From IMG/VR virus record IMGVR_UViG_3300045988_038444, positions 1-43,689 of that record: DNA of 43,689 nucleotides; one strand, given 5' to 3'. The notes under the pieces were generated by a model that did not search any database, was not told the DNA's origin, and was given only the letters and a program-made list of their open reading frames with translations. The stretch is from a virus (taxonomy: Duplodnaviria; Heunggongvirae; Uroviricota; Caudoviricetes). Position 1 is the stretch's first letter. Every line of letters starts with the position of its first letter. Position numbers and translations under genes: made by a program. This document shows positions 18,026 to 43,689 of the stretch, piece by piece.

Positions 18026-18091
18026 GGTTTTTTTACCTTTTATGTAGTAGACGATTAGATAGTAATAGTTCTGTACAAATTACGCAAGAGA

Positions 18092-20759: not shown

Positions 20760-21181
20760 TGATTAAACCTCACCATTATTCCGGCTTTTAATATAGCACG
20801 TTCGACAAACCCGGAAGGTGTCTGTGTACTGCTACCACCATTGAGAACCCCAATGTAAGGAACGTTGTTAGTAATATGCAGTTCCTGACCATTAACTTTA
20901 ATACTGCTGATAGTGACTGTATCCTGTTCGATACGTGCTTTACTGGCTTCAACATTACCTGTTGGTGTATCAGGACTATTAGCGGGTTGCCCCTGATCGA
21001 ACCACCAGTTGTTGCTTGCCCAGCCACTCAATATTGGTGTACCATCAGGAGGCTCACTTATGAGTATGTTACGTAGTGTTAAAACATATCTAATGACTTG
21101 ACGATCCGTAAAATCTTGTAAGTCGGCTTTTATGTCTTTAAACACTCCAGTAATACGATTTATATCATTGATTTTGCTAGT
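20756..21181 (-). CDS. Head-tail joining protein (putative)
   Basis: Track ORF 20756..21250; start moved to internal Met 21181 (MTSKINDINR...) because the 5' extension collides with the divergent plus gene. Confidence 0.35.
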   Translation of the reverse strand, partial: TSKINDINRITGVFKDIKADLQDFTDRQVIRYVLTLRNILISEPPDGTPILSGWASNNWWFDQGQPANSPDTPTGNVEASKARIEQDTVTISSIKVNGQELHITNNVPYIGVLNGGSSTQTPSGFVERAILKAGIMVRFNQ

Positions 21182-21206
21182 CATTGACAAACCTAAAGGT
21201 AGAAAA

Positions 21207-23875: not shown

Positions 23876-24895
23876 TTAAACCGCGTCGTAGAACAGAACG
23901 CCCAGGTCAGGTGCAACCATCTGAACATCAATGGCAAATTCCGCTTCAACGAAATTACCACGACGGCCTTCGACACCCGGATAGGTACGGATAGACGGAC
24001 CGTTGTTAACGCCCAGACCGATGAACTCGTTCCACACGAAGCCCGCAGCCGCAACAGGTTTCATATTGCCAACAGTCGGTTCAACATAGTTGAGCATCAG
24101 CACACCAGTTTTAGCAAACCGGAAGTCTGACAGCGGATTGCCGTTACTGTCTTCAACGCCATCAGCAGCCATGTTGACCACAGACTGCATGATTTCCAGT
24201 TCGTCAACTTCCAGCAGTGCAGCCAGTGCCTGTTTAGTCACGATCCCAGGGTTCTGAGTGGTAGAACCACCGTTAATACGGTCAATAACAGCCGGGCTAC
24301 GGGTCAGTGCGTCATACACGTCCAGCGTCATCAGTGCTTTGTTCCAGCGACGACCACCGGATGCCAGAGAGAACGCAACACGACGTGACAGGATATCACC
24401 AATCGGATCGGCATTCGCATTAGACCATTTCAGGAATCCACCCGTGGACGGAGACGAGCCTTTACCCTGGAAATCAAGACCCCATTTACCAGCGGTCAGG
24501 AATTTTTCAGCAAAATCCACTTCTTTGTTGATCAGCAACGCATCTGTGGTTACTGCTGACGCTTCCATATCCAGTTGCTGACCGTTTTGAACGTTTGCAC
24601 GTTTTTTGTCAGAAATAAAGATACGGATCGCATCGTCATCAACGGTGTAACCCTGGTTTTTGGTTTTGTAACCAATAGTATTAGCAACACCATCTTCGGC
24701 ACGTTTGGAGTTAACCGGACGACCGAAATAACCTTTCGGGTAAGTCAGGAATTTACCAGCAGCCTGGTTAACAGGAACTACCGGGAAATAACGAGTACCG
24801 ACAAACAGTGACGTATCCTGCCAGTAACTTACAGAAAAGTTAGACAGGAATGTATCTGGTGCGCCAACGTCGCGAAAATTCTGTTTGTAACTCAT
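23876..24895 (-). CDS. Major capsid protein (putative)
   Basis: 339-aa ORF between scaffold-like gene and a terminator, typical position; no motif-level confirmation. Confidence 0.6.
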   Translation of the reverse strand: MSYKQNFRDVGAPDTFLSNFSVSYWQDTSLFVGTRYFPVVPVNQAAGKFLTYPKGYFGRPVNSKRAEDGVANTIGYKTKNQGYTVDDDAIRIFISDKKRANVQNGQQLDMEASAVTTDALLINKEVDFAEKFLTAGKWGLDFQGKGSSPSTGGFLKWSNANADPIGDILSRRVAFSLASGGRRWNKALMTLDVYDALTRSPAVIDRINGGSTTQNPGIVTKQALAALLEVDELEIMQSVVNMAADGVEDSNGNPLSDFRFAKTGVLMLNYVEPTVGNMKPVAAAGFVWNEFIGLGVNNGPSIRTYPGVEGRRGNFVEAEFAIDVQMVAPDLGVLFYDAV

Positions 24896-25309: not shown

Positions 25310-26568
25310 TATTCGTCACCTCGCATCGCTTCGATTGCTTCCTGACCTTTTTTAGTTGCAGAAACTGCCTGCATAGCCTGGGTGCGTGTTTTACCCGGAT
25401 TTGCTTTCAGCCATTCGTTGATCATGTCTTCCAGTGCACTGGAACCTTTACCACTACCGTTCGGCGCTGCTGGCTCTTTACGTGCTTTCCAGAGTTCGTC
25501 GGCCTGTTTGAGTTTTTCAACCAGAAAGTTACGATCCGCTTCCGGTAAACGCTCAAGAGTCATGACCATTTGGGTTTTCTGTACCATTTCACCCGGAATG
25601 TGTGCGAAATCAGCGTTCACGGTTTTTTCAGCTTTCGCCAGTGCCGCTTCAGTCTGTGCTTTGCGAAGTTGTTCGTCCTGAGATTTCAGAACATCATACA
25701 TCGGACCAGCTACAGACTTCTGAACAACCTGACCAGCAATCGTGGTAAACGATTCATCAGCCTGTTTAGCCATCGTCACGAGGGCATCGCGAGCAGTGGC
25801 ATCCATTTTACGGAATGCTTCCTGATCAGATTCAGGCAGAGAATTATGATACGCCTTATGGACGTCGTTCATCTCAGCCAGGGCTTTGTATTTTTCCAGT
25901 TCGGACATTTCGATTTCCTCTGCCGTTTTTAAAACTTGAGGTACTTCCTGGTCCGGGTGTAATTTTTTCCACGCGGATCGGACTTTGTTTTTCACACCTG
26001 CTAAATCGGCTTCAGGGATTTCAACTTTGTTACCGCGATAACCCGGACCTAATGCAGCAAGTGCAGCGCCTACAATACGCGCATCAGGTTCACCGCCAGG
26101 GGTAGCTGTTAAACGAAGTTTCCAGGTTGAAGGTTTTTCTGGATCTGGCACATATGCATAATCAGATGCCGGGAAAACTTCACCGTCTTCAGTTTTACCA
26201 CCTTTCGCTTTATTCATCGAAATACCAGCGGCCTGTTGCAACGTTATAATATATTCATTTACCGCGTCACGCAATGCTGCTTGTTTATCGGTAACAGAAT
26301 CATCTTTTGCAATATCCTCTGCTGCTTCATAAAGCGCATCGTTCAACATCCACGAATTAGAGAGGAAATCACGAACTTTCTGTTCAAGTTCTTTTTCAGC
26401 CAGTGCCGCGCTGAATGTTGACTTTAAAAGAACAACAGCAGGCGGTTCTGAATGTGATTTAAGAACAAGAGCATTTGCTCCCTCGTGAGCAGGTTTTGTC
26501 ACGCCGGACAGAAAACCGATCTTCATCGATTTAGCGCGGCGTAAATGATTAGTACCATCTGTACGCAT
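25309..26568 (-). CDS. Capsid scaffolding-like protein (putative)
   Basis: 419 aa with a long charged alpha-helical C-terminal half; ATG overlaps the upstream stop (taATG). Confidence 0.35.
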   Translation of the reverse strand: MRTDGTNHLRRAKSMKIGFLSGVTKPAHEGANALVLKSHSEPPAVVLLKSTFSAALAEKELEQKVRDFLSNSWMLNDALYEAAEDIAKDDSVTDKQAALRDAVNEYIITLQQAAGISMNKAKGGKTEDGEVFPASDYAYVPDPEKPSTWKLRLTATPGGEPDARIVGAALAALGPGYRGNKVEIPEADLAGVKNKVRSAWKKLHPDQEVPQVLKTAEEIEMSELEKYKALAEMNDVHKAYHNSLPESDQEAFRKMDATARDALVTMAKQADESFTTIAGQVVQKSVAGPMYDVLKSQDEQLRKAQTEAALAKAEKTVNADFAHIPGEMVQKTQMVMTLERLPEADRNFLVEKLKQADELWKARKEPAAPNGSGKGSSALEDMINEWLKANPGKTRTQAMQAVSATKKGQEAIEAMRGDE

Positions 26569-26978
26569 TATTCCACATCCTCATAATATGCAGTTCCACC
26601 GATACTATATCCCGTATATTCACCAGTCTGAAACTTTTTCAAAACTTCGTCATCAGTTATCAACGTACCAACAATGACGCCTGTCTGATCCAGTTTATCA
26701 ACCAGTCCAAAACTTGCTGCAATGTCTTCGGTCATCGGGAACGCAAACACAACTTTCCCAACAGGTTGTTGATTATGCATATTATCCATGATGCGCTGAT
26801 CAGAATTCATGAAGTCCAACCATGCTTTCAGAGTGACATCCTCGGGAAATTGCTCGTTGTCCGTGTCTGTGTAAATTTCTAACTGACCTGTCTCCTGATT
26901 ACGTTTTTTACAGATACTACCCCAACCGAATACCATACGTAGTGAGTTGTCAACCTTATTAACTTTTACGTTAATCAC
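26568..26978 (-). CDS. Hypothetical head-module protein
   Basis: 136-aa ORF in the head gene block. Confidence 0.35.
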   Translation of the reverse strand: MINVKVNKVDNSLRMVFGWGSICKKRNQETGQLEIYTDTDNEQFPEDVTLKAWLDFMNSDQRIMDNMHNQQPVGKVVFAFPMTEDIAASFGLVDKLDQTGVIVGTLITDDEVLKKFQTGEYTGYSIGGTAYYEDVE

Positions 26979-27411: not shown

Positions 27412-27456
27412 CCACAGGGTAGTTGTGTCGGTGTAATCCGTCAAGAATTATTTTGC
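27412..27456 (-). promoter_or_regulatory. Inverted copy of the conserved early promoter, reading leftward
   Basis: Plus gtaatccgtcaagaattatttt is the reverse complement of aaaataattcttgacggattac; downstream leader nearly matches the plus copy at 27742. Confidence 0.6.
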
Positions 27457-27526: not shown

Positions 27527-27640
27527 ACTTATACTACTCTTCTATTTATCTATGTTTATTATGTTTTCTATAAAAAGATAACAAAAAGAATAAGATAGAG
27601 AGGGGTTGGTTAAAAAGTAAACATGACGAAATATATGAAT
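27527..27640. repeat. Conserved ~110-bp noncoding element, copy A (core 27567-27632)
   Basis: Core tctataaaaagataacaaaaagaataagatagagaggggttggttaaaaagtaaacatgacgaaat recurs at 42643-42708 with 4 mismatches in 66 nt. Confidence 0.8.
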
Positions 27641-31419: not shown

Positions 31420-31923
31420 ATGACTAACCTGTATATCAAAAAACTAACACCCCACGCTGAACTTCCAACACGTGTAACACCAGACAGCGCCGGGTTAGAC
31501 GTTCGTGCTTGCCTATGGGAAGAATCGGTAACTATATTCACAGAATCAGGCGCTAAAGTGGAACGTCCGGTTGTTGCAGGAACAATCGCATTATGGCCCG
31601 GCGACCGCGCTATGATCCCCACTGGTCTGAAAATGTCAGTTGATAACGGATATTGCATTAAATTTTATCCACGTTCCGGCATGAGTCTTAAACACGGTTT
31701 GTCACTGATCAACTGTGTGGGTATCGGTGATCGTGATTACAAAGAAGAATACTACGTTACGCTGACTAACCACGGACAGAAATTACAGACTATCGCAGAC
31801 GGTGAACGCGTTTGCCAGCTTATGGTTGAACGTGTCGAACCTGTTAATCTGGTTGAAGTGGAAGAATTACCAGATGTTGATAGTCAGCGTAATGGCGGGT
31901 TTGGATCAACAGGACGGGTATGA
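31420..31923 (+). CDS. dut: dUTP diphosphatase (dUTPase)
   Basis: Motifs AGLDV, IPTGL, RSG, GVIDxDY-like (GIGDRDYKEEY), GERVCQL, and C-terminal RNGGFGSTG. Confidence 0.85.
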   Translation: MTNLYIKKLTPHAELPTRVTPDSAGLDVRACLWEESVTIFTESGAKVERPVVAGTIALWPGDRAMIPTGLKMSVDNGYCIKFYPRSGMSLKHGLSLINCVGIGDRDYKEEYYVTLTNHGQKLQTIADGERVCQLMVERVEPVNLVEVEELPDVDSQRNGGFGSTGRV

Positions 31924-32249
31924 TGAACAATCGTGATTTATTAGTCAACGCAGCACGGGCTGCTGAAATCCAGGGTAAATATTACGTCGCGTACGACGAA
32001 CGTTATATAAACGAAGGTATTGATATAGGTAATGGTCGCCTGTGGAACCCTCTTACACGTAATGAGGATGCTTTCAGTCTGATGGTTAACATGTACATGG
32101 ATCTGGATGTTCGTGACAACGAAGTGACGGTTAATAACCCTGACACTGGCGTTAGTTATAAGCAACCAGTTAGCCACGGAGAAGATCGTGAAAAAGCAAC
32201 GCGTTTAGCGATCGTCAACTGTGCAGCAATTGTGGGGTCGTATTTATGA
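31920..32249 (+). CDS. Hypothetical protein
   Basis: 109-aa ORF, ATGA overlap with dut. Confidence 0.45.
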   Translation: MMNNRDLLVNAARAAEIQGKYYVAYDERYINEGIDIGNGRLWNPLTRNEDAFSLMVNMYMDLDVRDNEVTVNNPDTGVSYKQPVSHGEDREKATRLAIVNCAAIVGSYL

Positions 32250-32494
32250 CGATATTTAAAAACTCAATGGGCGATACTGTCGCGTATCTACCGAAAGTCA
32301 TTATTGCAGATCCATCCTGTGTTGATTACCCACACTGCAAGCAATCTGAAGCGACCTACAACGACCTGTGCGCTGATATTATGCGTGGTTGTGACATCGG
32401 TATTGAACGACTTCAGAAACTGCGGGAGGAATACGAAAAACGGTCTGTTCAGGCAGCAATGGGTTTACCGCCTGTATACGATAATTTAAAATAA
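32246..32494 (+). CDS. Hypothetical protein
   Basis: 82-aa ORF whose stop lies inside the next promoter copy. Confidence 0.4.
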   Translation: MTIFKNSMGDTVAYLPKVIIADPSCVDYPHCKQSEATYNDLCADIMRGCDIGIERLQKLREEYEKRSVQAAMGLPPVYDNLK

Positions 32495-32530
32495 TTCTTG
32501 ACGGATTACACAAGGACGTGTAACCTACAA
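32485..32530 (+). promoter_or_regulatory. Conserved early promoter copy (-35 TTGACG 32498-32503, -10 taacct)
   Basis: atttaaaataattcttgacggattacacaaggacgtgtaacct. Confidence 0.7.
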
Positions 32531-32556
32531 ACATCAAAACAAAGGAGGACACAATC

Positions 32557-32901
32557 ATGTTATTCGCTATTTTATGGGTTCTTTTCTCTCTGATTATCGC
32601 GGGTGTTGCCAAACAAACGGGTCGCAACCCTGGTGCATGGTTCTTTATCGCATTTCTCACAAGTCCTGTGATCGGTGGTCTGATTCTGTTAATCGCATAT
32701 CTGTTTAACGGTAAGGTCGTAAGGGAACAACCGAAAGTGGTAACCACGGGGATGTTTAGTAACTACCTTGCAGCCTATAACTATGTTAATGAACATTACA
32801 CCATTGATACTGACTACCGGGCAGAAGCAGCCAGTGACCTGTTTAAGTATGCTACCTGTCGCGAGGACTGTGATAAACTGATCGCGAAGTACGTTAACTG
32901 A
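32557..32901 (+). CDS. Small inner-membrane protein (two predicted TMDs)
   Basis: aaaggagg RBS; hydrophobic segments ILWVLFSLIIAGV and WFFIAFLTSPVIGGLILLIAYL. Confidence 0.5.
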   Translation: MLFAILWVLFSLIIAGVAKQTGRNPGAWFFIAFLTSPVIGGLILLIAYLFNGKVVREQPKVVTTGMFSNYLAAYNYVNEHYTIDTDYRAEAASDLFKYATCREDCDKLIAKYVN

Positions 32902-32916
32902 CAGGAGAAAACTTAA

Positions 32917-33249
32917 ATGCGTTTTGAAATTCTTGAGCTTGTTAAATATGACAAGACTGCTGCTGAAATTCTGGTTGATGCAGTTGCTGACAACGAAGTG
33001 AAATTTAAACTACTTAACAAGGTCTGGAAATACATTGTAACCACGACTATTGTTGAGCAAGCATCACAGTTTAAAGAAGTTGTTGCTGATATGTACGCGT
33101 TCACTGGCGATGATGAGGTTAAACTACAACTGCTTGATAAAACGCTGGAACGTGCGATCAACAACAGTTATCCGTTACAGACTCGTATTCAGACTGCGGT
33201 TGATGAAGCGAGTAAATTACTGTCAATCGTGCAGCCTGAAACTAAGTAA
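32917..33249 (+). CDS. Hypothetical protein
   Basis: 110-aa ORF; aggaga RBS. Confidence 0.45.
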   Translation: MRFEILELVKYDKTAAEILVDAVADNEVKFKLLNKVWKYIVTTTIVEQASQFKEVVADMYAFTGDDEVKLQLLDKTLERAINNSYPLQTRIQTAVDEASKLLSIVQPETK

Positions 33250-33256
33250 AAATTAA

Positions 33257-33279
33257 GGGACCAGAAACGGTCCCTTTTT
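33257..33279. terminator. Bidirectional rho-independent terminator (gggacc-agaaac-ggtccc, T-runs both sides)
   Basis: Between convergent genes 32917..33249 (+) and portal (-). Confidence 0.65.
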
Positions 33280-33282
33280 AAT

Positions 33283-34638
33283 TCAGTCGTCAATAGACGG
33301 TAACCCATCCCCGGCTTTATCAATCCCCGTAATAGGTAGACCCGCCTCTTTATATACGTATTCCTGAAGGTCTGGATCCGGGAATACAGGCGCGCCAGCT
33401 TGTGCAAGTCGTGCAAGTGCAGTGGTCAACGTTTCGATACTGTCTTTACTGATCGACCCGGCGCGAATCGACGGGCGGTATTCATCAGGAAATGCGTTTA
33501 ACGACCATAACTGCGGTATCAACTGACGATTAACACATTCTACAATGCTGTCAATACGTGATTGCATTGCGCGGATCCATAATTCAGTACGACTACCCAG
33601 GTTAGCATTATTCCCGGTATTACCACCCGTTCCGAAAAACATGAAATCAGCCAGTAACGCACGGGCAATACTGGTATCCAGGCGTTTAATCGTCCGGTCA
33701 ATATCCACAGAACTGGTCTGATTAGGTGTAACGAATTCCAGTTTCACCTGTTGTTCACCACCATACGTGGTAACACCTGTTTCGTTATCGTAACCCGTGA
33801 TATACGGTTTAGAATAAATCACCAGTCCTGATTGTTCATTGCGTTTGATATTAGCGACGATGTTTTCATAGTTATCAATCATCGCCTGTGCTGCCTGACG
33901 TTGTTGTTCAGGAACGTTGGGGTCATTAGCCGCTTTCTTAATATCTGCGTTAACAGTAATTACCGGGAACCCTGTACCACGTTCGGCAAGTATGGATTCG
34001 ATTTCCATATTCACTTTTTTGTAGTACCACGGACGATAAGCTGTGCGCAGCAGTGATAAACCTTCCGGGTTACCTTTATTCGGACTTGAAATCAAATGAA
34101 GCGAACGGTCACGCGTGATTAACGTCGTTGTACCCTGGTTAGGTGAACGTTGATAAATACCACGAACATAACCTGTCGGTTCTTCAATGTCCCAGCCAGC
34201 AAGCGTTTCAGGTGCTACAGGAACCAGACGGGCAATACCCACCGTGCCATCATCAAGGTCTTTCACCCAGATGTCATACCAACCCCAGCCAAACACATCA
34301 ACGTCTGTCCATGTCTGAACGAACGCGGACCAGGTATCGTCCGGGAGTGCACCACGCGGATCACCCATTTTATTTTCAACAGCATCCTGTAACCATTCTG
34401 AATAACGAATAGCTTCTGGATCATCTTTGTCAGACGGGTCAAAAATCCACTGTACAGAACGATAAACGCTACTCATAGCGAATAACACACCGCCAATAGT
34501 TTCGTCGTTCTCAGCCATCTGACGCAGAATACGACGGCCTTGTTTACCGTTCAGCTTAGGAAGGAAATCGTCGTTTACCTGGTTGCCTGTTCGACTGTAC
34601 CCGGCAACGGCTAGTTGTTCGAATTGTTGATCAGCCAT
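33283..34638 (-). CDS. Portal protein
   Basis: 451-aa ORF between the terminase and head morphogenesis genes; size and position fit a portal; no motif check possible. Confidence 0.7.
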   Translation of the reverse strand: MADQQFEQLAVAGYSRTGNQVNDDFLPKLNGKQGRRILRQMAENDETIGGVLFAMSSVYRSVQWIFDPSDKDDPEAIRYSEWLQDAVENKMGDPRGALPDDTWSAFVQTWTDVDVFGWGWYDIWVKDLDDGTVGIARLVPVAPETLAGWDIEEPTGYVRGIYQRSPNQGTTTLITRDRSLHLISSPNKGNPEGLSLLRTAYRPWYYKKVNMEIESILAERGTGFPVITVNADIKKAANDPNVPEQQRQAAQAMIDNYENIVANIKRNEQSGLVIYSKPYITGYDNETGVTTYGGEQQVKLEFVTPNQTSSVDIDRTIKRLDTSIARALLADFMFFGTGGNTGNNANLGSRTELWIRAMQSRIDSIVECVNRQLIPQLWSLNAFPDEYRPSIRAGSISKDSIETLTTALARLAQAGAPVFPDPDLQEYVYKEAGLPITGIDKAGDGLPSIDD

Positions 34639-34707
34639 GTTCTACAGGCTCCATACGGTTTACGGTTCTTAACGTATGTTATATCAGTGATGGTTTTTTT
34701 GCACGGT

Positions 34708-34752
34708 GTTAAAATAATTCTTGACGAATTGCAAACGTGCGATTATGCTTTA
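34708..34752 (+). promoter_or_regulatory. Conserved early promoter copy (-35 TTGACG 34721-34726, -10 tatgct)
   Basis: gttaaaataattcttgacgaattgcaaacgtgcgattatgct. Confidence 0.7.
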
Positions 34753-34780
34753 GTCATCAAATGAACGAAGGGTGATAACT

Positions 34781-35092
34781 ATGAAACCGAATGAAAATAT
34801 TACACAACTGGATATTGCTTTTGGACCTAAAAACATTGCTGAATTTCTCCCGGCGATGGGTAGTATTCCGAAAGAATTTTTCGAAAATTCTAACCCGTGG
34901 AATCAGTGGGTCAGCAAATGGTTCTTCAACGGTCTGAAAGAATACGCAGTTGCTGTTGAAGGTGTGAACTTTAAAGATGCTCACGCGCATATCAAAGTGA
35001 TCCTGGGTAGTTTCGAACCTAAACACGAACATAAAATTGCCGGGTGTGCGTATCTCGCGTCAATGTGGTTTGTACCGGAGACAGTTAAATGA
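34781..35092 (+). CDS. Hypothetical protein
   Basis: Track ORF 34772..35092; ATG 34781 chosen. Confidence 0.45.
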   Translation: MKPNENITQLDIAFGPKNIAEFLPAMGSIPKEFFENSNPWNQWVSKWFFNGLKEYAVAVEGVNFKDAHAHIKVILGSFEPKHEHKIAGCAYLASMWFVPETVK

Positions 35093-35235
35093 ATCCAAGA
35101 AATATTAGTCGCCCGTGGGTTGAAAATTCACGCTCCGATCACTTCGAACGCCGTAAAGCAGAAGTTAAACGCTTGGTTGCCGCTGGTCACACTAAAAAAC
35201 GTGCACAACAAATTGCTAAAAGTAAGGGGTTTTGA
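35089..35235 (+). CDS. Small basic protein (48 aa)
   Basis: Below track cutoff; ATGA overlap with upstream stop; MNPRNISRPWVENSRSDHFERRKAEVKRLVAAGHTKKRAQQIAKSKGF. Confidence 0.35.
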   Translation: MNPRNISRPWVENSRSDHFERRKAEVKRLVAAGHTKKRAQQIAKSKGF

Positions 35236-35238
35236 ATT

Positions 35239-35397
35239 ATGGTATATGTTCTGATTTTCATTCTTAGTAGTAACATGATCGGTAGTGCTGAATTTAATAG
35301 TAAATCTGCATGTGAACAAGTAAACAAAGATATTCGTACAGCCGGACACCACGTGTGGGCGAAATGTTATCCGAAAGGTATGATAAACGGAGAATAA
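35239..35397 (+). CDS. Small protein with signal-peptide-like N-terminus (52 aa)
   Basis: Below track cutoff; MVYVLIFILSSNMIGSAEF... Confidence 0.3.
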   Translation: MVYVLIFILSSNMIGSAEFNSKSACEQVNKDIRTAGHHVWAKCYPKGMINGE

Positions 35398-35399
35398 TC

Positions 35400-35735
35400 A
35401 TGAATCATGTAAACGCTATTCGCTGTAATGATGAATATCAGTGTTCACACTGTGGTAAATCGTGGGATATCCACGAAGAAGCGCCAGATTGTAAAATGAC
35501 ACTGGTTAGTGCAGATGTGTATAAAACTGTCAATTATTTTGGTTTGTCTTTAACTGTTCCTGAAGATATTGACTATATAGCCACGAATAGTTACGGGGTT
35601 GTTTACGGGTATTTTAGTGAACCAGAACTATGTGATGAATTTTGGGATAATCATCGTTACGGTATCCCAAAAGTGAGGCTTGCAACTGTAAACCTACACG
35701 GGCTGAACTGGCGGGAGACTCTAAGAAAATGTTAA
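35400..35735 (+). CDS. Hypothetical Cys-rich protein
   Basis: Track ORF 35355..35735; ATG 35400 after ggag (MNHVNAIRCNDEYQCSHCGKSWD...). Confidence 0.45.
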   Translation: MNHVNAIRCNDEYQCSHCGKSWDIHEEAPDCKMTLVSADVYKTVNYFGLSLTVPEDIDYIATNSYGVVYGYFSEPELCDEFWDNHRYGIPKVRLATVNLHGLNWRETLRKC

Positions 35736-35890
35736 TTGGCTATGTACTGGTGCTTGTTCTACACGGTGTGGCTATTGAACCTGTGACAGAACGTATTATG
35801 ACGTTCGAACAGTGTCAGGGTGCTTTACAAGCTGAACAGGCTTACAACCCTGATAAAAATTACGGGTGTGCTGAAGTTTATCGGGACTAA
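35729..35890 (+). CDS. Small protein (53 aa)
   Basis: Below track cutoff; start overlaps upstream stop. Confidence 0.3.
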   Translation: MLIGYVLVLVLHGVAIEPVTERIMTFEQCQGALQAEQAYNPDKNYGCAEVYRD

Positions 35891-35895
35891 TTATT

Positions 35896-36051
35896 ATGGA
35901 ATACATGTACATTGCTTTCTCACTTCTGTTAATGATTGTTGTCGTTATTACAACTGAGAAAAAAAGAACAAGGTGTGATGGGTTTAGCAGTTGCTCTGAT
36001 TCGTGTTCTTTCAATCATGTTGCTGGTAACCAGTTTTTCAATTGCTTTTGA
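35896..36051 (+). CDS. Small membrane ORF (frame-1 part of a possible frame-split membrane protein)
   Basis: MEYMYIAFSLLLMIVVVITTEKK...; an A7 run at 35954-35960 separates it from the overlapping frame-2 ORF. Confidence 0.3.
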   Translation: MEYMYIAFSLLLMIVVVITTEKKRTRCDGFSSCSDSCSFNHVAGNQFFNCF

Positions 36052-36172
36052 CATCGTGGAATTACAAAGCGATTATTACGGTTTTGTGAAACTTCAACAT
36101 CAGTTGACATACGCCGTCATATTCGGTTTAGGTTCTGTTAGCCTCGCTGTTCTTTCATCTTTCAGACATTGA
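35978..36172 (+). CDS. Small membrane protein
   Basis: Track ORF 35936..36172; hydrophobic MGLAVALIRVLSIMLLVTSFSIAF and AVIFGLGSVSLAVL. Confidence 0.4.
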   Translation: MGLAVALIRVLSIMLLVTSFSIAFDIVELQSDYYGFVKLQHQLTYAVIFGLGSVSLAVLSSFRH

Positions 36173-36198
36173 AAAAAAGCCCCGGACAGTTCCGGGGC
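36172..36198 (-). terminator. Rho-independent terminator after the large terminase gene
   Basis: Minus strand GCCCCGGA-actg-TCCGGGGC followed by T7. Confidence 0.6.
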
Positions 36199-36299
36199 GA
36201 AGTCGATTAGTAAAACGTGAACGCGGAAAACTGTAATGGTACTATGAACGGACTGGTAAACCCTCTGAAAACGGGCGGGAATAATCCCGCCACACTGTT

Positions 36300-38063
36300 T
36301 TAAAAAATGTCACCGTATTCAGGAGTACCAACAGGATTCACACTACCAGTAAATGGTTCTTCGACAAATTCGGTGCGTTTTGGTGATAGTGCAATAACCG
36401 CAGCGTCGAAAAAGTTTGGTGACTTACTTCCGTTTGGTTTCTTGTCGATCACAATCTTCCCGGCACCGTTACTGGTATACGTTGGCTGACTTAACTCAGC
36501 TTCTAACCGTTGTGCGTTTTCCAGTGACGGATCAATCAGAATGATTTCGTCCGGATCCTGTGGTTGACCTTCCACATACCATTTATAAATTCGCTGACAA
36601 CGCAGGCGTAACGCCCACGATGCTTGTGCTTTATAATTTGAGAAATAATCTTTGTTTGATTTACGGTCTTTGTCACCAGGTTTTGTACCACCGATAATAT
36701 CACCACCCGGATCCACAACTTTTCCATTCGGTAACCACGGGCGCACACGGAAGCGTAAAATATCTTTCCGGTCATTTGCCGCTACTTTAACGCCTGTACC
36801 AACACCGTTAACTTCGTACCAGTATTCATCAACACCCAGCATATTAGCCATCGTCAACATTCCCGGTGCAGCCAGTTCAGCACCCCTGTGGTCAAGTTGC
36901 AGATGTGTCAGGAATACACCGTGAGCAATTACCAGCGCACTGGCATCTTCCCCACCGTCTGCTGCGTCCTGTCCGGCAATACGTTGACCTGTTGGTGTAA
37001 GTAGTCCATTAACTTTGCGCCATTCTGTGTCACGGAAAGCGTCAAAAGCAGCGCGTACCCATTCAGCTTTAATCAACACCCCCTGAACAGCAGCGGCATA
37101 ATCGCGGTCAACTTCCTGTGCGAAAATATGCTGTAAACCTTTTTCAGCGAACGATTGTTTTTCTCGCTTATACCATTCATCGTCTTTAGCCGGGTGATCA
37201 CGCCAGTCAAGAACCATTACACGCAATTTACCACGGGGTAATTTCTTGCCCGGTTCCCATTCCAGACCAGCTTTACGATTACGATAAAAAACGTTACCAA
37301 CACCGTTAACTGAACTGATGTCGATACGAACGTTGGTGTTAGCTGACAACGACGCTTCAATCAGTTCAGGACGGTCTACGTGTGCCGCTTCGTCCAAGAA
37401 GTAGACAGATTTACGACCACCACGACCGATGTTGTCACCAGCTTCACCAGTAATTGTTGCACCGTTTTCAGGGTTGATACATTTCATGTAAACCAGATGG
37501 TCTTTTTCACGCAGACCAACAGGACGTAATTCCGGTGGTAATGCGCGGATAATCTGGCGAATCTTTTCAAAAATACTATCCGGGTCACCCAGTTTATCGA
37601 CAAGCTGCTCTTTACGTGACCCCCAGCCAACTGAAGAACCAGGACGATACAGCCACGCCCACACGGATAAACCACAGGCTACCCAGGTCGCACCATAGTC
37701 TCGTGATTTTTCCCAAAGTCCTTTTTCTTTGTCTTCAAGCGCTTCATAAACAAACTGAACCATATCGATCTGACGTTCGAAAAGGCAGAAAGGCATGTTG
37801 GGTGGATATTCAGTACCGACGTTACGCGGGTCGTAAGTAAACGCCCAGTCGAGGATAAACGCTACCGGGTTTGTTTCGTAATACTTTTTCAGCACCGGGA
37901 CAATTGCCCGATCCGTGCGCATACGGTTTAACAGGTTAATACGGTCAATGTAACACTGCTTGTAATCCGGGCGTGGCTGACCTTTTCGCCAGATACGTTC
38001 GTCATTTGCGTAGGCATCACGCCAGCGCGGGTAATTATGAATATTTCCAGTAAACTTATTCAT
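36300..38063 (-). CDS. terL: Terminase large subunit
   Basis: 587-aa ORF; size and position upstream of portal fit a TerL; no motif-level confirmation. Confidence 0.8.
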   Translation of the reverse strand: MNKFTGNIHNYPRWRDAYANDERIWRKGQPRPDYKQCYIDRINLLNRMRTDRAIVPVLKKYYETNPVAFILDWAFTYDPRNVGTEYPPNMPFCLFERQIDMVQFVYEALEDKEKGLWEKSRDYGATWVACGLSVWAWLYRPGSSVGWGSRKEQLVDKLGDPDSIFEKIRQIIRALPPELRPVGLREKDHLVYMKCINPENGATITGEAGDNIGRGGRKSVYFLDEAAHVDRPELIEASLSANTNVRIDISSVNGVGNVFYRNRKAGLEWEPGKKLPRGKLRVMVLDWRDHPAKDDEWYKREKQSFAEKGLQHIFAQEVDRDYAAAVQGVLIKAEWVRAAFDAFRDTEWRKVNGLLTPTGQRIAGQDAADGGEDASALVIAHGVFLTHLQLDHRGAELAAPGMLTMANMLGVDEYWYEVNGVGTGVKVAANDRKDILRFRVRPWLPNGKVVDPGGDIIGGTKPGDKDRKSNKDYFSNYKAQASWALRLRCQRIYKWYVEGQPQDPDEIILIDPSLENAQRLEAELSQPTYTSNGAGKIVIDKKPNGSKSPNFFDAAVIALSPKRTEFVEEPFTGSVNPVGTPEYGDIF

Positions 38064-38123
38064 GGTTATCGGCCCGTTTGTAACTGTTCTGTATAGTTTA
38101 CCACGGGTGATTGGTGGTGACAG

Positions 38124-38168
38124 AGATTTAAAATAATTCTTGACAGATTGCAGAAGTGGTGTCAGACT
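38124..38168 (+). promoter_or_regulatory. Conserved early promoter copy (-35 TTGACA 38140-38145; weak -10)
   Basis: gatttaaaataattcttgacagattgcagaagtggtgtcagact. Confidence 0.6.
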
Positions 38169-38200
38169 CTGATTATCAATTGAACAGGAGTAACACAGGT

Positions 38201-38533
38201 ATGAATATTAAAGACCACAACGGATTATTTAAAGAAGTTCTTACCGTTCGTCTTGAACGTAATGCACAACCTGAATACGGGCAAAATGCCGTTTACTGTG
38301 TTCATTTTAAAGACACTACATTTTCATATTTTGAAGATGATGTAGACACTGTTGAAATTGGTGGCGACCTTTCAATATTCGTAAAACTTTATAATACTGA
38401 ACTTATGACTTACATGCTTCAAACGGTCCTGAATACGTTCGGTCGCACTGACGGGGTGTGTGTCACTACTCAGACAAAACAACAGGTGTTGCAAAACATC
38501 CGTGAACTACTGGAGCGCGTCGACCATGGGTGA
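38201..38533 (+). CDS. Hypothetical protein
   Basis: Track ORF 38156..38533; ATG 38201 after ggag. Confidence 0.45.
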   Translation: MNIKDHNGLFKEVLTVRLERNAQPEYGQNAVYCVHFKDTTFSYFEDDVDTVEIGGDLSIFVKLYNTELMTYMLQTVLNTFGRTDGVCVTTQTKQQVLQNIRELLERVDHG

Positions 38534-38708
38534 TAAACCAAGTCTGACACCGTGGCGGATCCGTTTAAATGGTGATGATATTAGTACCATTTATGCTTAT
38601 CAGGATAAACCACGAAATTTAGCGCTGGGGCAATACGCGCAATTATTCATGTTGTCGTCCTGGCAAATTGTGCAACGCACACTGGAAAAGATTAAAAGGG
38701 GTTGTTGA
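38526..38708 (+). CDS. Hypothetical small protein
   Basis: Internal ATG 38526 of track ORF 38460..38708, overlapping the upstream stop. Confidence 0.35.
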   Translation: MGDKPSLTPWRIRLNGDDISTIYAYQDKPRNLALGQYAQLFMLSSWQIVQRTLEKIKRGC

Positions 38709-38859
38709 TGATCATGAAACGCGTCGCCATTTCTGGTGTGGCCATTTTAATTCTTATAATAGTGTTTAGCATATTAATAGATAAAGGTGTGGATAATTTA
38801 TGTTTGCTTAATTTTATCAGTGTTACTTCTTTTTACCTTGGGTTATGGTGTTCAAAATA
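38708..38859 (+). CDS. Small membrane protein (50 aa)
   Basis: Below track cutoff; MIMKRVAISGVAILILIIVFSILI...; tgATG overlap. Confidence 0.3.
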
Positions 38860-39249
38860 ATGTGGAACATCTGTCATAAATCCGGGCGAGTACTGTTCAC
38901 TACGAATGATGAACGGACCGCTATGAATCGTGCTAAATATGGGTGGAGGGTTAAAAAAGTGGATGACCGTTACGAAATTGCAAAACAGCACGGAATGTCG
39001 ATAGAGTTCATCGACTGGTTTTGGGAGAACAAGAAAGCCAGTTTAGGTAGTGTCTGGTTTATCACTATGAGTACAATGTGGGAAGGGTGGAAAGGCGCGT
39101 TAGGTGATCCCGTGGGTGAAATTGTTGAAAGACCGTGTGAAGCAGAACTACGTTCTCCCGGTGAAACATACAAATACCTGCGTGGAAAACTCAACATGGA
39201 ACGTATGCCAGTAGGTACAAAGTTTTACGCCAGCCGAAACCCCTGTTAA
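38860..39249 (+). CDS. Hypothetical protein
   Basis: Track ORF 38845..39249; ATG 38860 overlaps the upstream stop. Confidence 0.4.
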   Translation: MWNICHKSGRVLFTTNDERTAMNRAKYGWRVKKVDDRYEIAKQHGMSIEFIDWFWENKKASLGSVWFITMSTMWEGWKGALGDPVGEIVERPCEAELRSPGETYKYLRGKLNMERMPVGTKFYASRNPC

Positions 39250-39320
39250 ATTATTGTAAAACCCATACCATTCTTACCAGTTCCGCACTACCCTGAAACT
39301 ATCAAACAGGAGTGCGGAAC

Positions 39321-39527
39321 ATGTTCAGATACGTTTTAAAATTACTCGCCATTATTGCAACATGGCTAATCATACAGTCCGGGTATGACCTGCGTGTTCG
39401 TAACCAATGTTCAGACTATCAACGCATTACACGAACTGCGACAATCTACAGTCACGGTATTTGTTACGCGGCAGACAGTGACGGACAGTTTAAAATAATT
39501 CTTGACGGTTTACACATCATCAGATAG
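39321..39527 (+). CDS. Hypothetical small protein with hydrophobic N-terminus
   Basis: ggag RBS; 3' end overlaps the next promoter copy. Confidence 0.35.
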   Translation: MFRYVLKLLAIIATWLIIQSGYDLRVRNQCSDYQRITRTATIYSHGICYAADSDGQFKIILDGLHIIR

Positions 39528-39533
39528 ACTTCA
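39489..39533 (+). promoter_or_regulatory. Conserved early promoter copy (-35 TTGACG 39502-39507, -10 tagact)
   Basis: gtttaaaataattcttgacggtttacacatcatcagatagact. Confidence 0.65.
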
Positions 39534-39562
39534 GTTTGTGTAAAACAACTGGAGTTATCACC

Positions 39563-39829
39563 ATGTTTAAAACTGGTCAACACGTAGAAGTCACCAGTCC
39601 ACGACTGTTAGAAGTTCTCGCACGTCGCAAATCTAAACCGTTCGGCACTGTTGTAGCGGTCGATCCGCAAGCTGAATACCCGGTTAAAGTTCGCATCACT
39701 GACGATACAGGGTTTCAAATCCCCTTCACGTTCAACGGTGAACAGTGCGATTACACTTTCTCATTTACTATGAACGGTCATCATGACCATCGTAGCCTGA
39801 CACCTGATTTAAGAGTGGTGAATGTATGA
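39563..39829 (+). CDS. Hypothetical protein
   Basis: Track ORF 39536..39829; ATG 39563 after ggag. Confidence 0.45.
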   Translation: MFKTGQHVEVTSPRLLEVLARRKSKPFGTVVAVDPQAEYPVKVRITDDTGFQIPFTFNGEQCDYTFSFTMNGHHDHRSLTPDLRVVNV

Positions 39830-40068
39830 TGAGTACGAAAACAACAATTATCAACTGTTTTCGGAAAGTTACTGGGTACGATCCGAATGTAATTATCACC
39901 GCCAACGGTTTGTATTATTCGGTAGATAATTATGGTCTGAACAATACTTTATGGAGTGTTCCACCACAACAAATTATTACTGACCATAAACAACCACATC
40001 GTAAAACAGGTATTGCAAAAGCCCGACGCGATGCGAAGAAAAGAAGGAACCGGAAATTAAACGGTTGA
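39826..40068 (+). CDS. Hypothetical protein with basic C-terminus
   Basis: 80-aa ORF; ATGA overlap. Confidence 0.4.
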
Positions 40069-40102
40069 TTATCTCATTCACAAATTAAACAGGAAAACAA
40101 AT

Positions 40103-41017
40103 ATGAACTTCTTTAAAAACGCTATTATTTATCGTCTGACTAATCCTATGGCACTAATGGCCCAGTTGCCAACACTGGAAGACAGCCTGTGTGCGTTTCA
40201 ATTCAATCCATGTGGTTCACAGGATATGGCGCGTACTGGTTGGGTTCCGGCAACTGAACAACATCATACGCTGGTTCACCAGGCTAATGGGCAATATCTG
40301 CTGACCATCCAGAAACAGGAAAAGATTATTCCTGGTCCGGTCATTAAACAGCATCTGAACGCGCGAATCGCCAAACTGGAAGCGGAACAGGCGCGTAAAC
40401 TGAAGAAAACAGAGAAAGATAGCCTGAAAGATGAAGTATTGCACAGTCTGTTACCACGAGCATTCGTTAAAAACAGTCGTACACAGTTGTGGATTGATAT
40501 CACTAGCGGGTTGATCGTGGTTGATGCGTCCAGTGCTAAACGGACTGAAGACGCATTAGCACTATTGCGTAAATCCCTGGGTAGTCTGCCAGTCGTCCCA
40601 CTGACAACTGAAAACCCTGTTGAACTGACAACAACGGAGTGGGTACGTTCAGGAAACGCGCCAACAGGTTTCACAATGGGTGATTCTGCGGAATTGAAAG
40701 CAATCCTGACTGACGGCGGTGTTGCACGCGTTAAAAAACAGGATTTAACCAGTGATGAAATAGCCACGCATATTGAAGCAGGAAAAGTTGTTACAAAACT
40801 GGCTCTGAACTGGCTGCAGCGGGTAACGTTTACGCTAACTGACAGCATGACGTTAAACCGTGTGAAATTCTGCGACGGGTTGCTCGACCAGAACGACGAT
40901 ATCGATCGTGAAGACAGTCTGACACGATTTGACGCTGATTTTGTACTAATGACAGGTGAACTTCAGGCGCTGATCAAACAACTTATCACTGCTTTGGGTG
41001 GGGAGGCTAAACGATGA
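40103..41017 (+). CDS. rdgC: Recombination-associated protein RdgC homologue
   Basis: 304 aa; long collinear similarity to E. coli RdgC as recalled (FKN..YRL start, [64 protein letters not shown] end). Confidence 0.8.
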
Positions 41018-41346
41018 GAACAGAACAGGAACGTATTATTCAGTGGTTATGTTCTGGTGAAACCGGACTAAGCTCTAAAACGATGGTCTGCATTCACACG
41101 GGTAATGAAATGGGTTACGGCTGGGAGTTTAGAGCACCCTTTGACGTTTCTGATTTTCGCCGTTGTTGGTTCCTGGTTGAAGCTGTGCCAGAAATCAGAA
41201 ACAGTTTTCCGTTGATTGCTGAAAAGTGTCCGGCGTTTAAAGGTGTGATTGAAAACTGGGACGTTATTAGCGCAGCTTATGAACGTGAACGCGGATCCGG
41301 TAAATGTCCTGAAACGTATCGGTTACTGAAAGAAAGTTTAAAATAA
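41014..41346 (+). CDS. Hypothetical protein
   Basis: 110-aa ORF; stop lies within the next promoter copy. Confidence 0.45.
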
Positions 41347-41381
41347 TTCTTGACGGGTTGCACAAGGAAGTGTAATATTAC
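41337..41381 (+). promoter_or_regulatory. Conserved early promoter copy (-35 TTGACG 41350-41355, extended -10 tgtaatat)
   Basis: gtttaaaataattcttgacgggttgcacaaggaagtgtaatat. Confidence 0.7.
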
Positions 41382-41412
41382 CTCATTGAAACGAATTATG
41401 AGGAACCGGAAA

Positions 41413-41604
41413 ATGTTATTTACAAAAGAATGGTATGAAATCATGGAGTCTTTCGAAAAGAATTGCAAAGGGCGTTTTCGTTTTGACCGTGAAGAAAAAG
41501 AAATGTGGAAAATTGGTGCGTACTATCAGCAAGGAGAATGTAACGAGTGGTTCAAAATGTTTCTTGCTGGTTATATGGCTGGTCGTGCTACTTATCTCAA
41601 CTAA
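41413..41604 (+). CDS. Hypothetical small protein
   Basis: Track ORF 41350..41604; ATG 41413 after gagga. Confidence 0.4.
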   Translation: MLFTKEWYEIMESFEKNCKGRFRFDREEKEMWKIGAYYQQGECNEWFKMFLAGYMAGRATYLN

Positions 41605-41614
41605 TGCGTAAAAC

Positions 41615-41636
41615 GCCCCGTAAGGGGCTTTCTTAT
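41615..41636 (+). terminator. Rho-independent terminator (gcccc-gtaa-ggggc plus tttctt)
   Basis: Directly after the stop of gene 41413..41604. Confidence 0.55.
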
Positions 41637-41697
41637 ATCACCCTGTACCCTTGCACCACCCATCAACAGATCGTCGAAACGCAAACGGTTTCCGGCG

Positions 41698-42333
41698 TTA
41701 TTTAAGCGCTTTCTGATACAGTTGCGCGATGTCGTCAATAGTTGCACCTTCAGGAACACTCTGAACCACGTTTCCAACCACACCAGACAATTCCACACGG
41801 TCGATACTGTTCCCGGTGATCTTATCCAGTTGTTCAGACGCTTTTGCACGAGTTTTCGGGTCGAACAGTTCACGTGTCACCAGAATGTATCCACCCAGCA
41901 TGTAACGTTTGTAGCAAACTACGTACTGTTGTAGATGGCTGGGGATATCGTCGGTACTGTTCACCCACAGGTGTTTCGCTTCCGTGTCGTCTTCACCAGG
42001 AACGATGACACGCTGACAATACGGTTCCAGTAATTCTTCAGCCGTGCTTGCCGCTCGTTTCCACCACTCGACACGACTCGTTAACGATTCCCCTACAGAC
42101 TCAAGCGCATGACTTCCCATCGCGTCCAGATAGTTCAACACCTTCGTATTCGACAGGAGGCGATGTGCGGTCGTTGCAGCCGCTGCATCAGACGTGTGAC
42201 CCGGATAAGCCTCTAAAACACATCGCGTATTGCTGAAGCCGTTATTGACACGATCTAACCACAGGTTGGCGAACTTGAGCTGTTCCGGCGACAACTCCAG
42301 AGCAGCCCTTTTAGCCCGGTCTGAAATTTTCAT
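41698..42333 (-). CDS. Terminase small subunit-like protein (Terminase_2-type N-terminus)
   Basis: Start at Met 42333 after gggaga; LSPEQLKFANLWLDRVNNGFSNTRCVLEAYPGHTSDAAAATTAHRLLSNTKVLNYLD fits the small-terminase DNA-binding pattern as I recall it. Confidence 0.5.
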   Translation of the reverse strand: MKISDRAKRAALELSPEQLKFANLWLDRVNNGFSNTRCVLEAYPGHTSDAAAATTAHRLLSNTKVLNYLDAMGSHALESVGESLTSRVEWWKRAASTAEELLEPYCQRVIVPGEDDTEAKHLWVNSTDDIPSHLQQYVVCYKRYMLGGYILVTRELFDPKTRAKASEQLDKITGNSIDRVELSGVVGNVVQSVPEGATIDDIAQLYQKALK

Positions 42334-42602
42334 AAATTTGTCTCCCATAAATTTTAAATTAGTTTCCCACAGATACCCACGGGTTGTCCACACGCCCTGT
42401 TTTACAGCTAATACAATGTTAATATTAAGTTTACAGTTAGTGCACAATATGCATTAATTTTCGACTATATACATAAATACGTAGCCCATAATCACAATGA
42501 TTTCAAAGACTTGCATAAAAACATAGATTACAATAGGTATCTCCCAGACTTTTATTTTAGCTCTATTTACAGCTAATACACTATATGCACTATCTCTATC
42601 TT

Positions 42603-42712
42603 TCTATACTACTTCTTCTTTATATCTATGTTTTCTATGTTATCTATAAAAAGATAATAAAAAGAATAAGATAGAGAAGGGTCGGTTAAAAAATAAACAT
42701 GACGAAATCTAT
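42603..42712. repeat. Conserved ~110-bp noncoding element, copy B (core 42643-42708)
   Basis: Matches 27527-27640; core 62 of 66 nt identical. Confidence 0.8.
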
Positions 42713-42729
42713 GTTAAGTATAACTTTAA

Positions 42730-42855
42730 TGCACAACATGCACTATATAATTCACAACGTGCATTAGCTGTGCCAACATAGATACACAACGTGCACTAAC
42801 AGTTAATACACAACGTGCATCTTGCACTAACTGCTAAAGCACAACATGCACTAAG
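42730..42855. repeat. Iteron array: five direct repeats of cACAAC(A/G)TGCA(C/T)TA
   Basis: Copies at about 42731, 42752, 42784, 42807 and 42839, spaced 21-32 bp, upstream of the HTH repeat-protein gene. Confidence 0.7.
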
Positions 42856-42938
42856 TGTAAATACACTAACATATAAAGCACGTCTTGCACTAGCTGCTAA
42901 TGCACGTTATGATTTATCCGTGGTCAAACAAGAAGGGT

Positions 42939-43689
42939 ATGATAATGAAAAAGAACCTTTTAGACGAATTAATAGATTTAAAAGGCGGGGTACAAAACGC
43001 TGTTGAATACCTTAATCGTCGAGGTGTTAAGGTGACTGTTGGTCGTTACAACCAATGGTTAAGCGGTAGGTTTCATCCTAAATATGAAACGATCAGTATT
43101 ATTCTTGAAGAGATTACTGACTTCACACTGTCACCCTTGCCAGTACAACATTCTGACGAAAACATTGTTCTTAAACACACAATACCGGTTACCGAACTGC
43201 GTCAGAAATTACCACACAGACGTTTTGCTAATAACTACTGGCAACGTGTCAGATACGTTGATTCACAGATCCTGGAAGCTGTTCACGGTCACGACGTGTG
43301 GACACGGTTTGAGGCGATGTGTGGTAATTTTGAATGTGCAAGATATGTGCTACGCAGAAATTTAAACGAACACACAATTACTGACAGTTGGATTCAAAAT
43401 GGTTTGCGCCGGGGATGGATCCCGGAATGTGTAAACGTAATGGTCGATTTGCTTGAAAAATACGAAGGCACCGGGACACCGTTTAACGTAATGGTTTGTG
43501 AACCACCTGTATCACGAGTGGAACCACCTGTATCACGAGTGGAAGCACCTGTATCACGAGTGGAACCACCTGTATCACGAGTGGAAGCACCTGTAGCACG
43601 AGTTGAAGCACCTGTAGCACGATTTGAACCGCCTGTAGTCGATGTCAGCGATTTGAAGGAGAAAATCAGACTGTATGCGTTATCACACA
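42939..43689 (+). CDS. 5' part of an XRE-type HTH protein with Pro-rich heptad repeats (3' end beyond the window edge)
   Basis: ATG 42939 after aagaaggg; open to the last base of the window, so absent from the track; NAVEYLNRRGVKVTVGRYNQWLSG is HTH-like; C-terminus is (E[PA]PV[SA]RV)x6. Confidence 0.55.
   Translation, partial: MIMKKNLLDELIDLKGGVQNAVEYLNRRGVKVTVGRYNQWLSGRFHPKYETISIILEEITDFTLSPLPVQHSDENIVLKHTIPVTELRQKLPHRRFANNYWQRVRYVDSQILEAVHGHDVWTRFEAMCGNFECARYVLRRNLNEHTITDSWIQNGLRRGWIPECVNVMVDLLEKYEGTGTPFNVMVCEPPVSRVEPPVSRVEAPVSRVEPPVSRVEAPVARVEAPVARFEPPVVDVSDLKEKIRLYALSH
43500..43640 (+). repeat. Coding tandem repeat, 21-bp unit gaaccacctgtatcacgagtg with variants, about 6.5 copies
   Basis: Direct repeats visible; encode EPPVSRV / EAPVARV heptads. 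Confidence 0.85.

Follow-up and report, generated by a model that had tools for sequence, protein, structure and literature searches.

In SPP1, the gene for the small terminase subunit (terS) lies adjacent to that for the large subunit (terL). For phage 9NA, DNA packaging reportedly follows a pac-initiated headful mechanism, with cuts scattered over about 170 bp. Casjens et al. found that 9NA DNA shows a pac fragment, strongly suggesting headful packaging from a pac site, and small genes interspersed among the virion genes of 9NA have been described (Casjens 2014). Adjacency of terS and terL is typical but not universal, since TerS of the Pseudomonas phage E217 is encoded ~58 kb from TerL (review PMC9611059). 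Exchange of genes between conserved functions has been studied in T4-type phages, where recombination between the dispersed sigma-70-like promoter/stem-loop elements of the regulatory cassettes known as PeSLs drives modular shuffling (Arbiol et al. 2010, PMC2839356; Comeau et al. 2014, PMC4122927).

The DNA analysed here, a stretch of 43,689 nucleotides referred to as the window, covers the greater part of the genome of a virulent siphophage of the 9NA-like type (Nonanavirus/Sashavirus; genome of ~57 kb). Its best megablast matches are the Escherichia phages AVIO78A, PDP46 and PJ16, with ~94 % identity over the aligned parts. The first-pass annotation had noted a small-terminase-like gene separated from terL by a plus-strand block, and had read the arrangement as the outcome of early cassettes having been inserted repeatedly into the packaging module. 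The split itself is real. Such a split terS-terL layout is already known for 9NA-like phages, i.e. the observation is correct but ordinary, and the insertion part of the claim is not supported by the layout of the relatives. As the best explanation, with a probability of roughly 85 %, we propose that the gene encodes a small terminase of the SPP1/SF6 G1P type and that it belongs to an ancestral interleaved layout with turnover of promoter-bounded cassettes.

The open reading frame as listed (41698..42447, minus strand) begins with a TTG; an internal ATG at 42333 gives a product of 211 aa (636 nt if the stop codon is counted). Since this ATG is preceded by the Shine-Dalgarno sequence GGGAGA 6 nt upstream and the close homologues are all 211 aa long, we consider 41698..42333 (minus strand) to be the correct terS gene. 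The first-pass annotation thus had the right gene and position, while the length that it gave, 212 aa, corresponds to 211 aa plus the stop codon. The product shows 100 % identity (tblastn) to annotated small terminases of the Escherichia phages AVIO78A, PDP46 and KarinMuster (Bas82), is ~99.5–100 % identical to that of Sasha, 99.5 % to those of Sergei and Solent, and 83 % to 9NA gp1, which is labelled hypothetical in KJ802832. Altogether, 31 phage records contain a full-length homologue (at least 99 % coverage, tblastn), several of them annotated as TerS. Across the 9NA-like TerS proteins (9NA gp1, Sasha gp01, Sergei gp01, AVIO78A_001, PDP46_0001 and KarinMuster Bas82), identity to the window protein is 83–100 % over 211 aa, and the genes are placed and oriented alike with respect to terL and the portal gene; we see no difference of substance.

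The protein also matches phrog_51 ‘terminase small subunit’ (E 8e-11). The single sequence matches Pfam Terminase_2 (PF03592) at E 0.044 with 14.9 bits, under the gathering threshold of 26.1 bits; a search of NCBIfam gave no match for TerS, TerL, the portal protein or the neighbouring gene, and searches of the PDB with the single TerS sequence (phmmer) or a shallow 11-sequence profile returned only noise. We therefore rely on the wider family, which comprises 42 close relatives and 45 representatives at E <= 1e-3, and on an alignment of 29 diverse members (A2). Terminase_2 is matched by 14 of these 29 members at E <= 0.01 (best E 3.2e-15). Searched against the PDB, the A2 profile finds the SF6 TerS (3zqp/3zqq, E 8.8e-6) in two collinear stretches, i.e. 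query residues 12–99 and 148–187, as well as the Pam5 TerS (E 5.5e-3).

An AF2 model built on A2 (mean pLDDT 79) consists of helices at 5–61, a long helix at 63–95 plus a further one at 98–105, strands at 107–153, a disordered stretch at 177–192 and a terminal helix. The sole significant Foldseek match of this model in the PDB is 3zqq_C (E 4.4e-4), from an entry described as ‘full-length small terminase from a SPP1-like bacteriophage’, whereas a first model from a shallower alignment was uninformative when searched against the PDB. The TM-scores with 3zqq_C are low (0.23/0.35), as one would expect when ring-forming proteins are compared as extended monomers. Against BFVD, all named matches at E <= 0.01 are labelled small terminase. 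SPP1/SF6 G1P (3ZQP/3ZQQ), of a pac-type headful phage, is thus the best fold match, with profile-level likeness in the N-terminal DNA-binding/oligomerisation part and in a C-terminal segment, at ~19 % identity. The window family differs by ~48 extra residues relative to the SF6 TerS (residues ~100–147, about 41893–42036 of the window), which are present family-wide and for which beta-strands are predicted with confidence (pLDDT about 76–93).

A better candidate next to terL was not found: neither the 15 plus-strand open reading frames between the portal gene and terS nor the gene upstream of terS have a PHROG or Pfam terminase match, and no terminase-family match was obtained for any other open reading frame tested between 34.7 and 43.7 kb. 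A six-frame hmmsearch of the window with the TerS family profile revealed no second terS copy, this being a weak check because the profile was made from the gene's own family. Taken together, the phrog_51, SF6 profile and 3zqq_C matches and the identity to annotated TerS proteins uphold the earlier assignment and identify the 211-aa protein as the small terminase subunit of this 9NA-like phage. Starting from a helical DNA-binding region of the HTH type at the N-terminus, it would continue with long helices for oligomerisation, a region rich in beta-strands and finally a helix at the C-terminus. By analogy with SPP1/SF6 G1P, it would recognise a pac region and recruit TerL for pac-initiated headful packaging.

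The terL gene (36300..38063, minus strand; 587 aa; phrog_2, E 4e-17; Terminase_6N, E 5.5e-4) encodes a protein that shares 96–99 % of its residues with TerL as annotated in 9NA, Sasha and AVIO78A, and is followed by the portal gene (33283..34638, minus strand; 451 aa; Portal_Mu, E 6e-24; phrog_113, E 2e-65). As the first-pass annotation had stated, both intervals are filled with genes on the plus strand. The gap of 3634 bp between terS and terL (38064..41697) is occupied by plus-strand open reading frames, the majority with a PHROG match (among them RdgC, E 3e-125), and the gap of 1661 bp between terL and the portal gene holds plus-strand genes at 34781..36172. Several of the mechanically listed open reading frames start too early, i.e. 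within promoters, and their starts were corrected.

Owing to three copies of a promoter-like repeat (at 38129, 39491 and 41339), the terS-terL block can be divided into three units. Cassette 1 (38129..39527, plus strand) consists of a putative promoter at 38129–38145 with a -10 at 38163–38168, followed by small genes at 38201–39527. Cassette 2 (39491..41346, plus strand) has its promoter at 39491–39507, the -10 at 39525–39530 and genes at 39563–41346, among them a full-length rdgC (40103–41017, plus strand; Pfam, E 7e-115). In cassette 3 (41339..41604, plus strand), the UP-like/-35 part at 41339–41355 and the -10 TAATAT at 41373–41378 precede a 63-aa ORFan (41413–41604, plus strand), which has no PHROG match and no homologue in eight relatives and is flanked by its own putative promoter (41339) and terminator (41615–41628); its position holds other genes in the relatives. 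Between the portal gene and terL lies block B (34710..36172, plus strand), with a promoter at 34710–34726, a -10 TATGCT at 34744–34749 and small genes at 34781–36172. The next plus-strand block past the portal gene (31420–33249) contains the dUTPase gene.

The repeat in question is the 17-mer TAAAATAATTCTTGACG, which occurs in ten copies at up to one mismatch in the window, compared with 0.24 expected and a maximum of two across 100 shuffled sequences. Nine copies lie on the plus strand (starting at 16148, 18094, 27744, 31345, 32487, 34710, 38129, 39491 and 41339) and one on the minus strand (27439–27455). Each copy comprises an UP-like element and TTGACR, followed by a 17-nt spacer and a -10 hexamer; eight of the ten hexamers fit TAnnnT (those found being TAACCT, TATCTT, TATGCT, TAGACT, TAATAT and TACCCT, with CAGACT and CTAACA as the poorer ones). 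All nine plus-strand copies are followed within 30–50 nt by a Shine-Dalgarno sequence and an ATG, and every plus-strand block or unit is headed by a copy. In their sequence, these elements look like strong sigma-70-type promoters for the host RNA polymerase. The cargo, i.e. RdgC, dUTPase, an anti-repressor-like protein, HNH endonucleases and many small proteins of unknown function, would fit early expression. Since the one copy on the minus strand stands at the start of the head-gene operon, with a protease-like gene (26568–26978) and the major capsid gene (23876–24895) among its members, strand does not cleanly equal timing and the label ‘early’ is insecure. Two HNH/homing-endonuclease genes lie on the plus strand within the minus-strand tail/head module (16399–17310 and 21132–22103; phrog_681, E 5e-85 and 4e-64); the former has a copy of TAAAATAATTCTTGACG (16148) ~250 bp upstream, ahead of a preceding 59-aa open reading frame (16218–16397).

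Generic scans were less informative than the repeat, with 27 promoters compared with 22.5 in shuffled sequences and 12 terminators compared with 10.4, neither above expectation; the case for promoters therefore rests on the repeated 17-mer. Hairpins from the terminator scan were found at block ends only (33255, 36179/36274 and 41615) and not beside each copy of TAAAATAATTCTTGACG. A putative bidirectional terminator at 33255–33276, between the portal gene and the dUTPase block, has annotated counterparts at this position in AVIO78A and Sasha. A convergent pair is formed by a hairpin at 36179–36198 (minus strand) after terL and one at 36274–36291 (plus strand) after block B. Between the converging plus-strand block and terS, the GC-rich hairpin GCCCCGTAAGGGGC followed by TTTCTT (41615..41628) is a predicted terminator for the plus-strand units and a possible weak one for terS, the T-tract on the minus strand having only 4 T. 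The repeat and the hairpins at block ends bear out the earlier statement that the plus-strand units have promoters and terminators of their own.

The upstream regions of the three packaging genes are distinct from the repeat. For the portal gene, the region at 34639..34709 (minus strand) contains the element CTGATATAACATACGTTAAGAA, invariant in seven phages, with an extended -10-like TGnTATAAC. The region upstream of terL (38064..38128, minus strand) carries the element GTGGTAAACT(G/A)TACAGAAC(A/T)GTT, which includes an extended -10-like TGnTAAACT and is placed back-to-back with the promoter of cassette 1; both GTGGTAAACT and TACAGAAC are unchanged in all seven phages aligned, including Klebsiella phage Carvaje. 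The leader and putative promoter region of terS (42334..42400, minus strand), with the Shine-Dalgarno sequence GGGAGA and a conserved GACAAnCnGTG..CTGTG.(G/A)AA block, is conserved in a seven-phage alignment, less clearly than the terL and portal elements. Judging from their conservation and position, all three regions may contain promoters. The octamer ACCCGTGG at 42377–42384 (minus strand) is common to the upstream regions of terS and terL but is also present at five unrelated sites. As a candidate common late promoter, TRTACAGAACWRTTAC was considered, with two perfect copies only, upstream of terL and of the gene at 17603–18025; once mismatches were allowed, its copies were not above chance. 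The same two genes share the 16-mer T(A/G)TACAGAAC(A/T)(G/A)TTAC at 38080–38095 and 18062–18077 (both minus strand; the gene at 17603–18025 is on the minus strand as well). This 16-mer likewise has two perfect copies only and, with mismatches permitted, does not exceed chance; it could be a late-promoter or regulator element.

From these elements, the following organisation can be proposed. The genes terS, terL and portal keep their canonical order and orientation, each as an isolated leftward unit, while the rightward units between them would each be driven by a copy of one conserved sigma-70-type promoter (an A/T-rich UP-like element, TTGACR, 17 nt and TAnnnT) and would end at hairpins that they have in common with the late gene converging on them. 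E217 resembles the window in that terS and terL need not be neighbours. It differs in belonging to another phage type with another TerS family and in having the two genes on opposite sides of the genome, whereas the order in the window is canonical and only interrupted.

We compared the layout with eight relatives, i.e. 9NA, Sasha, Sergei, AVIO78A, PDP46, Klebsiella phage Carvaje, Proteus phage PM-CJR (Gorganvirus) and Morganella phage Henu15. In all of them, terS, an opposite-strand block, terL, a second opposite-strand block, the portal gene and a third opposite-strand block with the dUTPase follow each other. In PM-CJR and Henu15, TerS is only 32 % and 33 % identical, respectively, to that of the window. 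The position of TerS is as in the 9NA-like group: it is encoded by the first gene of the virion module, on the strand of terL and portal, with an opposite-strand block before terL. A contiguous terS-terL or terL-portal arrangement was not found among the relatives inspected. Since the three slots (terS/terL, terL/portal and portal/next late gene) are occupied in every relative examined, we regard them as ancestral, i.e. the interleaving goes back to the ancestor of the entire 9NA/Gorganvirus group and does not stem from recent insertion in the phage of the window.

The slots differ considerably in what they hold. The terS-terL gap measures 893 bp in Sasha, 2091 bp in Henu15, 2496 bp in PM-CJR, 3138 bp in 9NA and 3554 bp in Carvaje, and reaches 3634 bp in the window, 4219 bp in AVIO78A, 4468 bp in PDP46 and 5425 bp in Sergei. 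Thus, it ranges from 0.9 to 5.4 kb even among phages with near-identical terminases, and its gene content is patchy: TerL of Sasha and of the window are 99 % identical, yet none of the ten block genes is shared. Such variation in size and content between close relatives, together with the two homing-endonuclease genes elsewhere in the virion module, which demonstrate that insertions do occur, would also be expected if a once-contiguous terS-terL-portal module had been broken recently by several independent insertions of early cassettes. We consider this unlikely, as no relative inspected has terS next to terL or terL next to portal, the Proteus and Morganella phages have filled slots with repeated promoters at the same places despite 32–33 % TerS identity, and even the smallest slot, the 893 bp of Sasha, still carries three opposite-strand genes. 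The repeated insertion proposed in the first-pass annotation is accordingly not supported by synteny, which is conserved down to the Proteus and Morganella phages; only the content of the slots turns over.

For the preferred reading, i.e. ancestral slots with turnover of promoter-bounded cassettes, the breakpoints between close relatives are most instructive. In AVIO78A, 9NA, Carvaje, Sasha, Sergei and PDP46, the corresponding positions carry the same 15-mer core of the promoter. The single promoter of Sasha is a hybrid, of which the left flank matches the window to 38145 (the terL side) and the right flank from 41356; likewise, the 9NA promoter is a hybrid with a left flank matching to 39507 and a right flank from 41356. 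Consequently, window positions 38146–41338 (cassettes 1 and 2, 3.2 kb) are missing from Sasha, with the junction within the promoter repeat, and positions 39508–41338 (the RdgC unit, 1.8 kb) are missing from 9NA, with both junctions on promoter repeats. These two segments are therefore promoter-to-promoter cassettes, with a crossover inside the repeat. Further breakpoints are found just downstream of the promoters, at 38152–38156 and at 34766–34802, each in PDP46, Sasha, Sergei, 9NA and Carvaje. AVIO78A has an additional ~2-kb minus-strand block after terL (AVIO78A_016-020, 6282–8330), which carries an annotated promoter and terminators, is missing from the window, and joins at window positions 36267–36273, i.e. 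at the convergent terminator pair. The slot content of the window is itself a new mosaic, e.g. with the ORFan at 41413–41604 and without the 2-kb block of the AVIO78A type.

These junctions suggest gain and loss of cassettes from promoter to promoter, as with the PeSLs of T4-like phages. Homologous recombination between dispersed promoter copies, and at terminators, would delete, insert or swap whole cassettes, and the flanking essential packaging genes would stay nearly identical while the cargo evolves. The hybrid junctions, of which two are fully resolved, fit recombination at the repeats and are equally compatible with insertion and deletion. The likeness to T4-type PeSLs lies in the many dispersed sigma-70-like promoter copies in variable regions between conserved core genes and in the indel or replacement junctions between close relatives that fall on repeats. 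In contrast to the PeSLs, the repeats reside in a ~57-kb siphovirus and not in a T4-like myovirus, the window repeat consists of a promoter alone, to which a stem-loop is not necessarily joined, and the variable regions are on the opposite strand, directly between packaging genes. An earlier description of the TAAAATAATTCTTGACG promoter repeats or of the junctions was not found in a limited literature search.

More distant relatives have repeats of their own at these places, i.e. AAAATATCGCTTGAC in Henu15 and GTTTAAA(G/A)TATnGCTTGAC(G/A) in PM-CJR, both lying directly ahead of terL and portal and pointing away from them. It is tempting to speculate, at somewhat less than even odds, that the 17-bp repeats and their diverged Proteus and Morganella counterparts are PeSL-like recombination linkers, which have kept terS, terL and portal separate between promoter-bounded hyperplastic cargo slots since before the genera diverged, the late genes being transcribed from extended -10-type promoters back-to-back with the cassette promoters.

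Upstream of terS, the 610-bp divergent region that extends to the next plus-strand gene contains, at 42440–42911, ~9 copies of a partly palindromic ~14-mer with a consensus of about ATACACAACGTGCA(C/T)TA and TGCAC...GTGCA symmetry, which look operator- or iteron-like. Two related copies, ATACAGAACGTGTA, are present at 27655 and 27718 (minus strand). Moreover, a segment of 109 bp is duplicated at ~88 % identity between this region (42605–42713) and the control region, likewise divergent, that precedes the head genes (27530–27637), and the two control regions, regulatory or origin, therefore look paralogous. We considered the repeats beside terS as a candidate pac site but did not retain this idea, given that the 109-bp part and similar repeats recur in the second control region at 27.5 kb; for the same reason, transcriptional or replication control fits them better. 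A 21-bp tandem repeat at 43500–43637 (6.6 copies, 93 % matches) is coding sequence and does not represent an iteron array. It lies inside the open reading frame that starts at 42945 and runs off the end of the window, and encodes a heptapeptide repeat (EPPVSRV-like) in a protein of phrog_25538 (E 1e-144; function unknown).

The position beside ~9 operator-like palindromic repeats, the sub-threshold Pfam match and the fact that N-terminal folds are common to TerS and HTH regulators could also indicate that the 211-aa protein is an HTH regulator or replication factor acting on the neighbouring iteron-like repeats, with the TerS function absent or supplied elsewhere. This is very unlikely, since both profile and fold searches pick solved small terminases rather than regulators, the canonical order and orientation of terS, terL and portal is kept in all relatives, and none of the open reading frames tested, be it in the 9 kb around terL or in the rest of the window, offers an alternative terminase-family match; in addition, the repeats begin 100 bp and extend to 580 bp upstream, and a second set of them occupies another control region at a distance from terS. 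That the interleaving is an artefact of ORF calling in a non-coding or minus-strand-coded region, as the short length (48–134 aa) and unknown function of many of the plus-strand open reading frames might suggest, has a practically negligible probability in view of the strong PHROG matches for most of them (e.g. 1e-50, 2e-49, 5e-39 and, for RdgC, 3e-125), the promoter, Shine-Dalgarno sequence and ATG of each unit, and the minus-strand frames in the gaps being short antisense shadows.

With a small terminase of the SPP1/SF6 G1P type in an ancestral interleaved layout as the preferred reading, the split terminase as such adds little, given that an identical TerS is in GenBank, interspersed genes were noted in 2014 and non-adjacent terS and terL are known from E217. 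The assignment is of value for annotation, as 9NA, SP069 and many phages of Klebsiella, Proteus and Morganella continue to list the gene as ‘hypothetical’. A modest lead, and perhaps the more interesting by-product, comes from the promoter-repeat junctions. The repeated promoter would provide a simple handle for engineering cargo slots in 9NA-like phages, and promoter-marked cassette junctions between essential packaging genes would extend PeSL-type shuffling beyond the T4-like phages.
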